64,000 bases of DNA from Escherichia phage vB_Eco_ZCEC15: the sequence record PQ871103.1; one strand, given 5' to 3'. The translations under genes were made by a program, and so were the position numbers. The notes beneath the pieces were generated by a model. The model worked only from the letters and a program-made list of their open reading frames with translations, was not told the origin of the DNA and ran no database searches. This document shows positions 41,151 through 55,833 of the stretch, piece by piece (within the stretch, counting starts at the first letter, position 1; each line of letters opens with the position of its first letter).

Positions 41151-41336
41151 TTAAAGCGTATTCACATAAGCTATTAATTCATTTTCTTTCTTATCAAACC
41201 GATCAGCAAATTCTTCCTGCTGTTCGGGAGATAGCGGGCCATATTCATCATAAAAGGTGTTTGCTTCTGTATGCTCATCTAGAAGTTCATGGATAAGCTC
41301 AAACAATTTATCTTTTTGTTCTTTACTCAGACTCAT
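41151..41336 (-). CDS. hypothetical protein, 61 aa (tk.1 position)
   Basis: ORF track. Confidence 0.5.
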   Translation of the reverse strand: MSLSKEQKDKLFELIHELLDEHTEANTFYDEYGPLSPEQQEEFADRFDKKENELIAYVNTL

Positions 41337-41506
41337 ATATTAATTTCCAGGAGTTTTAAAATAATTCGCTTTTGCTTAAATATTTCCATAGTTAAATGAC
41401 CAGTATCTTTTTGACCGATTCCAATGGCAAAACCTTTATTGACAGCGAGTTCAATTAAATTATCAAGCTCACATAACACTTCATATTGTAACTCAAAACT
41501 ATTCAT
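41333..41506 (-). CDS. small protein, about 57 aa (own translation, MNSFELQYEV...)
   Basis: ATGA start/stop overlaps with both neighbours; not in ORF track; coordinates approximate. Confidence 0.35.
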   Translation of the reverse strand: MNSFELQYEVLCELDNLIELAVNKGFAIGIGQKDTGHLTMEIFKQKRIILKLLEINI

Positions 41507-41730
41507 TTTGGTTTACCTTCTTTAACGAAATCGGGATAAGGATAAAATCCTGAATAAAATCCTTCACCTTTATGATTGATGCATCCTTTATTAGAACAAT
41601 AGCACCAATAATCGAAATCACAAGCCATTTCATCATTACATAAAGCAAAAACAACTGGCCATTCACACTTTTCGCAGTGGGCATTTTTAAGAATACTTGT
41701 TTGGCTCATAACCATGTAACCTTTAAACAA
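41503..41730 (-). CDS. Cys-rich small protein, 75 aa
   Basis: Multiple Cys/His (CEKCEW, CDFDYWCYCSNKGC). Confidence 0.5.
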   Translation of the reverse strand: MFKGYMVMSQTSILKNAHCEKCEWPVVFALCNDEMACDFDYWCYCSNKGCINHKGEGFYSGFYPYPDFVKEGKPK

Positions 41731-41918
41731 TATTCTTCTACGTGTTGTTTACGACCTTTCTTATCAATAAAGGTATATTCAACGAATGTTCCAATATAGT
41801 CTTTATCTACACCATGTGGACTATTAATTGGGCATTTAGTACGGCAAATGCGTTCCCATTGACGAATAATTTCCACTTTGTTTTTAGGATCAAACGGATG
41901 CGGGTAATGTACTTTCAT
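41706..41918 (-). CDS. hypothetical protein, 70 aa
   Basis: ORF track; GGTGGA SD upstream. Confidence 0.5.
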   Translation of the reverse strand: MKVHYPHPFDPKNKVEIIRQWERICRTKCPINSPHGVDKDYIGTFVEYTFIDKKGRKQHVEEYCLKVTWL

Positions 41919-42369
41919 AATCCACCACTATTAAATCAATATCAGGAGTAAACATGTCGATTAATTTAGAAACCTTATCCCAATCGCCGCCAGCAATACC
42001 GCAACCTATACGTGGAATGTAAATTACTGGTTTAAACAAAAGGGTTTCTGCCTGTAGATTTAATTCTATCATGCAGTTTACTAAAGCACCATAATCAAGA
42101 TTAGGACCCGGTTCGTATTGTGTATACAGGTTATAGCATATACCAAATCCCGTAGGACTATGTTTAAAAACAATAGACATATCGCCTAATTTATCACGAG
42201 AACCGTACTCGGTAGTGGTTTTATCTATTTCTAAAATTTTGGGATAGGCTCTTGCTAATTGACCCGCTACGCCAGAGCCCATTGTGTGGAAGCAATTGCA
42301 CCCGTGCGCAATAATATTACCTTGAAGAAATAGGGCGACAATATCGCCCTTGATATATTTTACAATCAT
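41890..42369 (-). CDS. macro-domain protein, 159 aa (tk.4 position)
   Basis: Motifs IAHGCNCF and GCGIAGG resemble macro-domain ADP-ribose-binding loops. Confidence 0.6.
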   Translation of the reverse strand: MIVKYIKGDIVALFLQGNIIAHGCNCFHTMGSGVAGQLARAYPKILEIDKTTTEYGSRDKLGDMSIVFKHSPTGFGICYNLYTQYEPGPNLDYGALVNCMIELNLQAETLLFKPVIYIPRIGCGIAGGDWDKVSKLIDMFTPDIDLIVVDYESTLPASV

Positions 42370-43779: not shown

Positions 43780-44100
43780 TTATTCTTTAAATCTAATCAA
43801 TTTATTCATAGACTTTGAAACTTCTGCACGGACCTCATGTAGGTTTTTAAGCTGTTCAAGACGCTGCTCATAGTAAGCAATTTCATCTTCTTCGAGACAG
43901 TCCTGTGAATCTTCTTTAAGATAACGTGCATAGTCCTGGAAAGCTTTACGGACTACTTCTTGGAAGTCATCAAGACTTTGAATTTTCTTAGGAGCAACAG
44001 ATACACGACGAGGGGCAGTATAATACTCATAACCAAACCCTGCGCTTAATTGAGCCATTAATATTTTTCCTCTGGTTGGAACACAGCACGACAAGCCCAC
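43780..44100 (-). CDS. hypothetical protein, 106 aa (vs.3 position)
   Basis: ORF track. Confidence 0.55.
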
Positions 44101-44360
44101 ATACTAGCTTCTTTGAGTTTCGTTTTAGCAATAGTTAACTGATCGAGGCTTTCAGCATAATTCTTTGCGAATTCGTAGTCTTCACAATTATCTAGTGCTT
44201 CCCAGAATTCATCATATAAAGCGTCAAAGATAAGTCCTAAACGAACTTCAGCGTCTTTGATAGCATTCACTTTATCGATTTTCTCTTCAGTGTGCGGCTT
44301 ATAACCTTTAATATCTTCAATCATATTTGACTTCCTCGCCCGTTCCCAAATCATATTCAA
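44058..44360 (-). CDS. Vs.4-position protein, about 94-100 aa; candidate Acb2-type cyclic-oligonucleotide sponge
   Basis: Position corresponds to T4 vs.4, which is the anti-CBASS protein Acb2; identity not verified by alignment. Confidence 0.5.
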
Positions 44361-44538
44361 CTAAACGAATAGGTTCATAAATGCCATATCCCTGAACAGA
44401 AATTTCTGTCGTAGGATAAATTCCACTAATATCACCCATATTCCACGCTTCATTAAATTGCTGTTCGCCTGAATTACTAAACCATTCTGCGAAAGCATTT
44501 AACACATCTTTAGAACCTTCAATAATTATCTTTGCCAT
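44317..44538 (-). CDS. hypothetical protein, 73 aa (vs.5 position)
   Basis: ORF track. Confidence 0.5.
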   Translation of the reverse strand: MAKIIIEGSKDVLNAFAEWFSNSGEQQFNEAWNMGDISGIYPTTEISVQGYGIYEPIRLVEYDLGTGEEVKYD

Positions 44539-44906: not shown

Positions 44907-45287
44907 TCAATTAGAAAATAAATTTATCCAAGATTGTTCTTTAATTAAAAATGGCTCAGAATCGTATGCCATTAAACTTTGGGTGATTAGTCCTTTAAAA
45001 GGTCCATCAATAAATTCCATGGTAAAATATGGAATTTTATTCATTAATCTTGCATTAGGAGCAGTACACAAAACTCTGCATCCTTTGAATACACCTTTTT
45101 GCAATTTGTATTGCTTAGGATAAAATTCGCTCAAGACGTTGTTATTTGCCAAAATTTCAAAATGATTCACCAATTTATTTTTAATAGTTTTTGGCGAAAA
45201 ATAAAGATATTCGAAAAGCTGTGTGTCTGTCATCATTGCATTCCGATTACGAAAAACTGCGGACGAGTAATACCACCAATGCAACAT
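44907..45287 (-). CDS. hypothetical protein, 126 aa (vs.7 position)
   Basis: ORF track. Confidence 0.55.
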   Translation of the reverse strand: MLHWWYYSSAVFRNRNAMMTDTQLFEYLYFSPKTIKNKLVNHFEILANNNVLSEFYPKQYKLQKGVFKGCRVLCTAPNARLMNKIPYFTMEFIDGPFKGLITQSLMAYDSEPFLIKEQSWINLFSN

Positions 45288-45823
45288 TTACTATTACAGC
45301 AGTGTTGCACAGTTTCAATATGAATATCGTAAATTTTATCCATATCAGGAGATTTAACAGGCTCATCGATTATATACAAAATTCGCGAAAGAGATAAACC
45401 TCTGAACTTGCTTCCTTTATTACCGATAAAACTACGGACAGAATCAGTAAATAAACGGAATCGAATATCATCGCTAGAATAACGAGAAAATTCTTTTTTA
45501 ATGTGGTCCGCAGAAATTTTAGCGTAAGATGAAGTATTAGAAAGAACAATAACTGTTCCACCGTCATACAACCAATTAGCAGCAAAGTTAGTCACAGCAA
45601 TTGATTTACCGGATTGACGTCCACCATCTAGTCGAAGTGTGCAGTATTCTTTAAATAAATGTGGCGAATCAGGTACATAAAATCCACTATTACAAATTTC
45701 TTCTACTCTAGCATCAGAATGGTGTGTAAAAGCATTCATCAGGGATAGATAAGGACCAGTTAAAAATGTTCTCATTTTGTTATCTCTAAATTTGGGCCAT
45801 TCCATGGCGCATGAATTTTCCAT
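45233..45823 (-). CDS. P-loop-containing hypothetical protein, 196 aa (vs.8 position)
   Basis: GGRQSGKS Walker-A-like motif. Confidence 0.55.
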   Translation of the reverse strand: MENSCAMEWPKFRDNKMRTFLTGPYLSLMNAFTHHSDARVEEICNSGFYVPDSPHLFKEYCTLRLDGGRQSGKSIAVTNFAANWLYDGGTVIVLSNTSSYAKISADHIKKEFSRYSSDDIRFRLFTDSVRSFIGNKGSKFRGLSLSRILYIIDEPVKSPDMDKIYDIHIETVQHCCNSKCCIGGITRPQFFVIGMQ

Positions 45824-45920
45824 TTCTGTATTTACCCATTACCGCACTTGGGCTCGACCTTATTACAGGTTGGCGGGAATCCCTCATAGAATCATGAGGT
45901 CCAGCTTGTTCCCATGTTAT

Positions 45921-46337
45921 TTAAATGTAAATATTTTTGCCGTAATACTTATACCAGTGTGGCTTCATTAAAATTTTTTCATCGAGTCGTTGTTGACTCA
46001 ACTTAATAGCTGATTTGCATGGATTATAATCATTTTTCCATTCTACTGGAATATCGCTGATGTCAGGAACTTCAGTATCTTTTATACTGAACCCGCGTTT
46101 TAAGCATTCCGTTATAATGTCCGATTGACGCTTTCGCAAAAATTCTAACTTATCATAAAAGAACGTAACATGACCAGAACCTAAAATAAACTCGGAAGAT
46201 ATTTTAAAATCTTTAACCCGCTTACCATTTGCTACATGTTTACGAACTATACCAAAAACACGCGGCAATTCACGGTATTCTGCGATTAAATGTTGATCAG
46301 CAAGTTCAGATACTAAAGTCAAATTAATACGAGTCAT
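45921..46337 (-). CDS. denV: endonuclease V DenV (pyrimidine-dimer glycosylase), 138 aa
   Basis: N-terminus [17 protein letters not shown] and length match T4 DenV with substitutions. Confidence 0.9.
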
Positions 46338-46351
46338 TTTATCCCTCCAAG

Positions 46352-46390
46352 CAATTGTGAATATACTATCACAATTCTAGGAGAAAGTAA
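46352..46390 (-). promoter_or_regulatory. early promoter with dyad ATTGTGA/TCACAAT flanking the -10 region, upstream of denV
   Basis: GTTTAC -35, inverted repeat around -10, GGAGGG SD before denV ATG. Confidence 0.45.
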
Positions 46391-46396
46391 ACAACT

Positions 46397-54507: not shown

Positions 54508-54741
54508 TTATTTTTTACGAAAAATTGATTTATTTTCTGCTGCCCATTTTTCAATAACTGCAGCAGGACCAGTAACAACAATTTTATCACCGTAATCTTC
54601 TGCGGCGAGTTGACCGAAATTATCTAATGCATCACGAAGAACTCCATGAGGCATTTCACCCATTTTATCTTTCTTGCCAGTGTAAATAAACTCAACTTTT
54701 ACATCAGCAGTTTCAGCAATAAATTCTTGGTAAGTTTTCAT
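54508..54741 (-). CDS. internal-protein-like protein (about 77 aa from MKTYQEFIAE)
   Basis: N-terminus MKTYQEFIAE resembles the T4 internal-protein capsid-targeting sequence. Confidence 0.6.
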   Translation of the reverse strand: MKTYQEFIAETADVKVEFIYTGKKDKMGEMPHGVLRDALDNFGQLAAEDYGDKIVVTGPAAVIEKWAAENKSIFRKK

Positions 54742-54762
54742 TTTGATTTCCATTTGGTTTTG

Positions 54763-54817: not shown

Positions 54818-55075
54818 TTATTTTAAATCTTCTAATCGTTTCTTCATCTTAGAACCATTTTTAGCAATTTCTCCTGCATCGGAGCATAATGCTAAAAGTG
54901 CTTTAACTTTAGTTTGGTCTCCTTTAAAAGATGAAGGATCGACCGCAGCAGCAAGTTCTTTAATACGAGAGAAAAGACGCTCAGCTTCAGCTAAAGCCAT
55001 TCCAAGCTTTACTTCCATACCGTGGGAAGATTCAGTGATAGTAGTTTTTGTAGCAAACTCTTTGAAAGTTTTCAT
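54818..55075 (-). CDS. internal-protein-like protein, 85 aa, N-terminal MKTFKEFATK
   Basis: CTS-like N-terminus; flanked by PeSL-like modules. Confidence 0.55.
   Translation of the reverse strand: MKTFKEFATKTTITESSHGMEVKLGMALAEAERLFSRIKELAAAVDPSSFKGDQTKVKALLALCSDAGEIAKNGSKMKKRLEDLK

Positions 55076-55148: not shown

Positions 55149-55833
<685 letters not shown>

Follow-up and report, generated by a model that had tools for sequence, protein, structure and literature searches.

The Escherichia phage vB_Eco_ZCEC15 almost certainly carries both of the anti-CBASS genes published for T4, Acb2/Vs.4 and Acb1/57B, in their usual places. This two-gene reading is built on the sequence identity, functional-residue conservation and synteny described here, and on biochemistry from the literature on the identical Acb1 and the near-identical T4 Acb2. 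A preliminary description of the window, the 64,000-nucleotide stretch of sequence record PQ871103.1 that was analysed, had proposed that two anti-CBASS mechanisms are present in one phage, and this proposal holds, with both genes identified and their pairing already published for T4 (PMC10312549, PMC12657218). The finding as such is already known and adds no new biology: phage T4 'encodes both Acb1 and Acb2' (PMC10312549), and single acb1 and acb2 deletions of T4, as well as the double deletion, have already been built (PMC12657218). Its value lies in supplying two missing annotations, those of vs.4 and 57B, which are labelled in most public records as 'hypothetical protein' and 'RNA ligase', respectively.

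The window is a segment of a Tequatrovirus (T4-like) genome, and its genes lie on the minus strand. A megablast search against a phage collection found hundreds of Tequatrovirus genomes, from phages of Escherichia, Shigella and Yersinia, with identities of 95-99%, and none of the records in the collection matched the 24-kb stretch 40000-64000 perfectly. For the comparison with T4, positions 58000-78000 of NC_000866 were taken as the reference, and the annotated proteins were run by tblastn against the window. These proteins are collinear in the window, in the order rI, tk, tk.2-tk.4, vs, vs.1, regB, vs.3-vs.8, denV, e and nudE, followed by the tRNA region, trna.2-4, 57B, 57A, 1, 3, 2 and 4. 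Therefore, the earlier claim that the order vs, vs.1, regB, vs.3 to vs.8, denV is preserved is correct, with the genes from tk through denV arranged as in T4. Identity to the T4 proteins is mostly 78-100% across the window, with lower values for tk.2 (54%), tk.4 (58%) and trna.3 (64%). According to the ORF listing, minus-strand genes are densely packed around both loci (44058-44360 and 55149-55607), and scans for sigma-70-type promoters and terminators around both genes returned about the same number of sites as shuffled sequence.

Several segments of the window differ from T4. The tk.1-tk.4 block (41151-42369, minus strand) is a mosaic relative to T4, in which T4 tk.1 has no match, two ORFs (41333-41506 and 41503-41730) have their matches among T2 genes, at 93-95%, and the macro-domain protein Tk.4 (41890-42369, Pfam Macro) retains only the 58% identity given above. 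Within 45233-46337 (minus strand), denV and vs.8 are 78% and 83% identical to T4, respectively, the vs.8 match beginning at T4 residue 26. Because both genes are far more diverged from T4 than their neighbours (97-99%), a recombination patch is suggested at denV/vs.8, adjoining the missing ipII/ipIII. The internal-protein genes are also unlike those of T4: ipII and ipIII are absent, the denV-e spacing is only 59 nt (46338-46396), and ipI, which encodes the T4 anti-GmrSD protein, has no tblastn match within the window. The ipI position holds two other internal-protein genes (54508-54753 and 54818-55075, both on the minus strand), the products of which both begin MKT(Y/F)(Q/K)EF; of these, the gene assigned to PHROG 3499 shares 98.8% identity with a T2 gene, and the other matches PHROG 8111.

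Table 1. Features of the acb2 and acb1 loci, in positions of the window.
Feature	Position	Strand	Description
vs.3 (92 aa), downstream neighbour	43780..44058	-	98% identity to T4 Vs.3
acb2 (vs.4) CDS	44058..44324	-	88 aa + TAA stop; cyclic-dinucleotide sponge (by homology)
vs.5 (73 aa), upstream neighbour	44317..44538	-	PHROG 1986, E = 9e-42
12 extra codons of the 100-aa ORF	44325..44360	-	TTG start; probably outside the gene; overlap the 3' end of vs.5
Shine-Dalgarno-like GAGGAAG before the acb2 ATG	44331..44337	-	Read from the sequence; same in T4 and T2
acb1 (57B) CDS	55149..55607	-	152 aa + stop; 2H-phosphoesterase cleaving cyclic oligonucleotides (by homology)

The preliminary description had placed acb2 in a 100-aa ORF at 44058-44360, and a minus-strand ORF of this length with a TTG start does lie exactly there, but the gene itself most likely begins at ATG 44324 and encodes 88 aa. 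From this ATG the frame is open to the TAA at 44058, with Y8 close to the N-terminus of the product, as expected of an intact family member of about 88-95 aa. The best placement of acb2 is at 44058-44324 because T4 vs.4 is annotated with a length of 88 aa, the crystallised Vs.4 chain (7UQ2) begins MIEDIKGY and thus has the same start as ATG 44324, and homologues in at least 40 IMG/VR contigs start M-[ISA]-[IV]-EDIKGY, that is, at the same Met or one residue later; moreover, GAGGA is found 8 nt ahead of this ATG, which overlaps the stop codon of vs.5 at the junction ATGATTGA. This last overlap also suggests translational coupling of vs.5 and acb2. At the other end of the gene, the TAA stop overlaps the vs.3 ATG in the junction TAATG. 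Although the frame is also open from TTG 44360, a 100-aa product with a 12-residue N-terminal extension is very unlikely, since the extension sits within the vs.5 coding region (ORF 44317-44538), the sequence upstream of the start Met shows no conservation among acb2 homologues, and the binding pocket needs Y8 near the N-terminus (PMC10097602), in addition to the T4 annotation, the start of the crystal construct and the position of GAGGA. The TTG-start reading was dropped in favour of the 88-aa ATG start on the grounds of the T4 annotation, the crystal chain and the homologue starts.

The neighbouring gene vs.5 encodes 73 aa in the window and likewise in T2, and relatives matching at least 80% of its length were found by tblastn in 986 phage records. 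Compared with the window, vs.5 of the T4 reference (L001, 5382-5558) lacks 1 nt some 50 nt from the start of the gene, and the resulting frameshift gives the annotated Vs.5 its length of 58 aa and its unrelated C-terminus. Because the 986 records match the 73-aa form over at least 80% of its length and the T4 frame is shifted, the T4 reference form looks like the exception, which could stem from a mutation in the strain or from an early sequencing error.

At the protein level, the window Acb2 is identical to T4 Vs.4 (NP_049728) at 86 of 88 positions (98%), the only differences being G17D and C50Y. Among the PDB sequences, it matches 'Vs.4' (7UQ2) with E = 9e-55 and the Acb2 of PaMx33 (8H2J, 8IXZ and related entries) with E ~2e-3. 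It also matches Pfam PF24729 (Acb2_Tad1_hairpin, the Acb2/Tad1 hairpin domain) with 72 bits at a cut-off of 27, and PHROG 717 with E = 2e-32, which is the family used by Jenson et al. to define Vs.4 homologues (PMC10097602). The earlier proposal that the ORF at the vs.4 position is Acb2 is supported by these matches, and the alignment to T4 Acb2 that had been put forward as the check on its identity reveals clear similarity along the protein.

The residues on which the function of T4 Vs.4 depends have been assigned in detail. Y8 and F82 stack on the bases of cGAMP, hydrogen bonds or salt bridges are provided by Y8, H11, K23 and R79, the S74N substitution interferes with binding, and T12 acts as a helix cap (PMC10097602). 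The hexamer interface is formed by L29, F33, A66, A73 and A77, and mutation of interface residues abolishes both oligomerisation and binding (PMC10097602). All 12 of these role-assigned residues (Y8, H11, T12, K23, L29, F33, A66, A73, S74, A77, R79 and F82) are kept in the window Acb2. In a family alignment of 43 distinct sequences, which comprised the window, T4 and PaMx33 proteins and 40 sequences from IMG/VR loci, the same 12 residues are nearly invariant, and each of the pocket residues Y8, F82, H11, K23, R79 and S74 is kept in 40-43 of the 43. The two positions that differ from T4 behave otherwise: position 17 is occupied by G, D, E, T, S or N, with D in PaMx33, and more than 10 different residues are found at position 50. 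Both positions are thus variable in the family, and neither G17D nor C50Y falls on a functional residue. From the sequence, we infer that the function of Acb2 would be unaltered by the two substitutions.

Natural loss of acb2 is nevertheless real. In T2 (L002, 26119-26385), a 2-nt deletion converts codon 8 (Y8) to a stop; any product would have to initiate at an alternative start and would be altered at its N-terminus. This deletion appears to be the T2 acb2 lesion mentioned in the Panoptes paper (PMC12657218). In addition, the 3' end of acb2 is frameshifted in two IMG/VR contigs (L045 and L046), where the translation leaves the frame within the final third of the gene. Panoptes systems are set off when their decoy nucleotide is taken away by Acb2 (PMC12657218), and Acb2 is for this reason also a liability; the decay of acb2 in T2, and possibly in L045 and L046, fits the published idea of Panoptes-type selection against Acb2. 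Selection of the same type, punishing Acb2 binding, might be the driver if the vs.4-position gene of the window, with its two non-conservative changes relative to T4, were a decayed or specificity-shifted Acb2 as in T2 that no longer sponges CBASS dinucleotides. Such a state is highly improbable, given that the frame is intact from ATG to stop, that none of the role-assigned residues is lost, and that few positions of the family vary as much as 17 and 50, with D17 being the residue of PaMx33, whose Acb2 binds cGAMP. The window gene shows no T2-like decay: it has kept both its reading frame and Y8.

With regard to ligand specificity, the failure of T4 Acb2 to bind cA3 has been attributed to Y37, A57, L60, D61 and T64 (PMC10312549), and these five residues are unchanged in the window protein. 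Because neither the role-assigned nor the cA3-exclusion residues have changed, the specificity of the window Acb2 is expected to be T4-like, so that dinucleotides would be bound and trinucleotides would not. Sequestration of cyclic dinucleotides without cleavage and the inhibition of CBASS are known for T4 Vs.4 (PMC10097602, PMC10312549, PMC12657218), from which the window allele differs at 2 of 88 positions. The exact D17/Y50 allele is already public in phage PBM-1 and in the IMG/VR contig L003, and 7 records are at least 99% identical to it, which amounts to a handful of sequenced Tequatroviruses. It is very unlikely that the D17/Y50 Acb2 is tuned in its ligand preference, for example by weaker binding of 2',3'-c-di-AMP; if it were, CBASS evasion would be kept and Panoptes-type decoy surveillance escaped, with Acb1 covering the remaining signals.

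The second gene of the pair encodes a protein that is identical to T4 57B/Acb1 (NP_049750) at all 152 positions, and the T4 protein was biochemically characterised in 2022 (PMC9117128). It matches Pfam PF23474 (Acb1) with 203 bits at a cut-off of 27, and the structure of FBB1 Acb1 (PDB 7T26) with E = 4e-62. The minus-strand ORF lies exactly where it had been described and contains the two H-x-T/S motifs ascribed to it, H44-S45-T46 and H113-I114-T115, which provide the catalytic tetrad H44/T46/H113/T115; the role of the HxT/HxT tetrad in Acb1 catalysis was described by Hobbs 2022 (PMC9117128). The proposal that 57B is the phosphodiesterase Acb1 is therefore borne out by the alignment to T4 Acb1 and by the Pfam match. 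That 57B could instead be an RNA ligase or an RNA-repair 2',3'-cyclic phosphodiesterase, and not serve immune evasion, is suggested by the label 'RNA ligase' in RefSeq and PHROG 755 and by a fold in the 2H phosphoesterase superfamily, which includes LigT-type enzymes (PMC9117128), but it is scarcely credible, as infected lysates lost the cleavage activity upon 57B deletion (PMC9117128) and the label was transferred automatically on the basis of a similar fold and has been overtaken by experiment.

Acb2 and Acb1 would together clear the CBASS second messenger, the former by sequestering it and the latter by degrading it, with ligand ranges that would be partly complementary. Acb2 is predicted to assemble as a hexamer with three pockets, each between two subunits, and each pocket would trap one 3',3'-cGAMP or other cyclic dinucleotide with tens-of-nanomolar affinity. 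The dissociation constants reported for Acb2 are about 30-85 nM for 3',3'-cGAMP and about 62 nM for 2',3'-c-di-AMP. In this way, the signal would be kept from the CBASS effectors and not destroyed, which would raise the threshold of effector activation. Acb1, on the other side, would act as a metal-independent 2H phosphoesterase using its HxT/HxT tetrad for acid-base catalysis, and is predicted to linearise cyclic di- and trinucleotides that contain adenosine, among them 3',3'-cGAMP, cUA, cAAA and similar signals, by a cut on the 3' side of the adenosine. The PaMx33 Acb2 binds 3',2'-cGAMP, cUU and cUG, which are uncut by Acb1, and T4 Acb2 has been reported with the same dinucleotide spectrum as PaMx33 Acb2 (PMC10312549). 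Conversely, cAAA is cut by Acb1 and left unbound by T4-type Acb2 (PMC10312549).

Both families are widespread in Straboviridae, with relatives of Acb2 found by tblastn in at least 1,232 phage records and relatives of Acb1 in at least 1,471, these being separate totals for each gene. The phage is predicted to be T4-like in resisting most CBASS systems of the cGAMP, cUA and cAAA type. It would also be vulnerable to Panoptes systems, which would be triggered when Acb2 soaks up the decoy nucleotide.

The closest known systems include T4 Vs.4/Acb2 (NP_049728, 7UQ2; Jenson et al. 2023, Huiting et al. 2023): in both phages the protein has 88 aa and its gene lies between vs.5 and vs.3, and the ligand-contact residues, the hexamer-interface residues and the ribosome-binding region are all identical. 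The window protein differs from it by G17D and C50Y, and the loci differ in that the shorter, frameshifted vs.5 of T4 leaves a 36-nt gap, whereas the stop of the 73-aa vs.5 of the window overlaps the acb2 start. The acb2 of T2 (PV958097 / NC_054931) shares its locus and its neighbours with the window gene and is nearly identical in nucleotide sequence, but through its 2-nt deletion the Y8 codon is lost and the normal N-terminus cut short, while the window gene is intact. Acb2 of the Pseudomonas phage PaMx33 (8H2J, 8IXZ and related structures) belongs to the same fold family and shares the mechanism of a hexameric cyclic-dinucleotide sponge, its Y11 and K26 corresponding to Y8 and K23 of the window, although it is distant in sequence (E ~2e-3). 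In PaMx33 Acb2, cyclic trinucleotides are accommodated in a second pocket (R67, T74 and a kinked helix), which T4-type Acb2 lacks, and in keeping Y37, A57, L60, D61 and T64 the window protein is of the T4 type and unlike PaMx33.

For the second gene, T4 57B/Acb1 (NP_049750; Hobbs et al. 2022) is the same protein, including the HxT/HxT tetrad and the C-terminal lid, and it is encoded in the same place downstream of 57A, with an overlapping ATGA junction. Acb1 of the Erwinia phage FBB1 (7T26/7T27) serves as the structural model, to which residues 9-149 align (E = 4e-62) with many substitutions.
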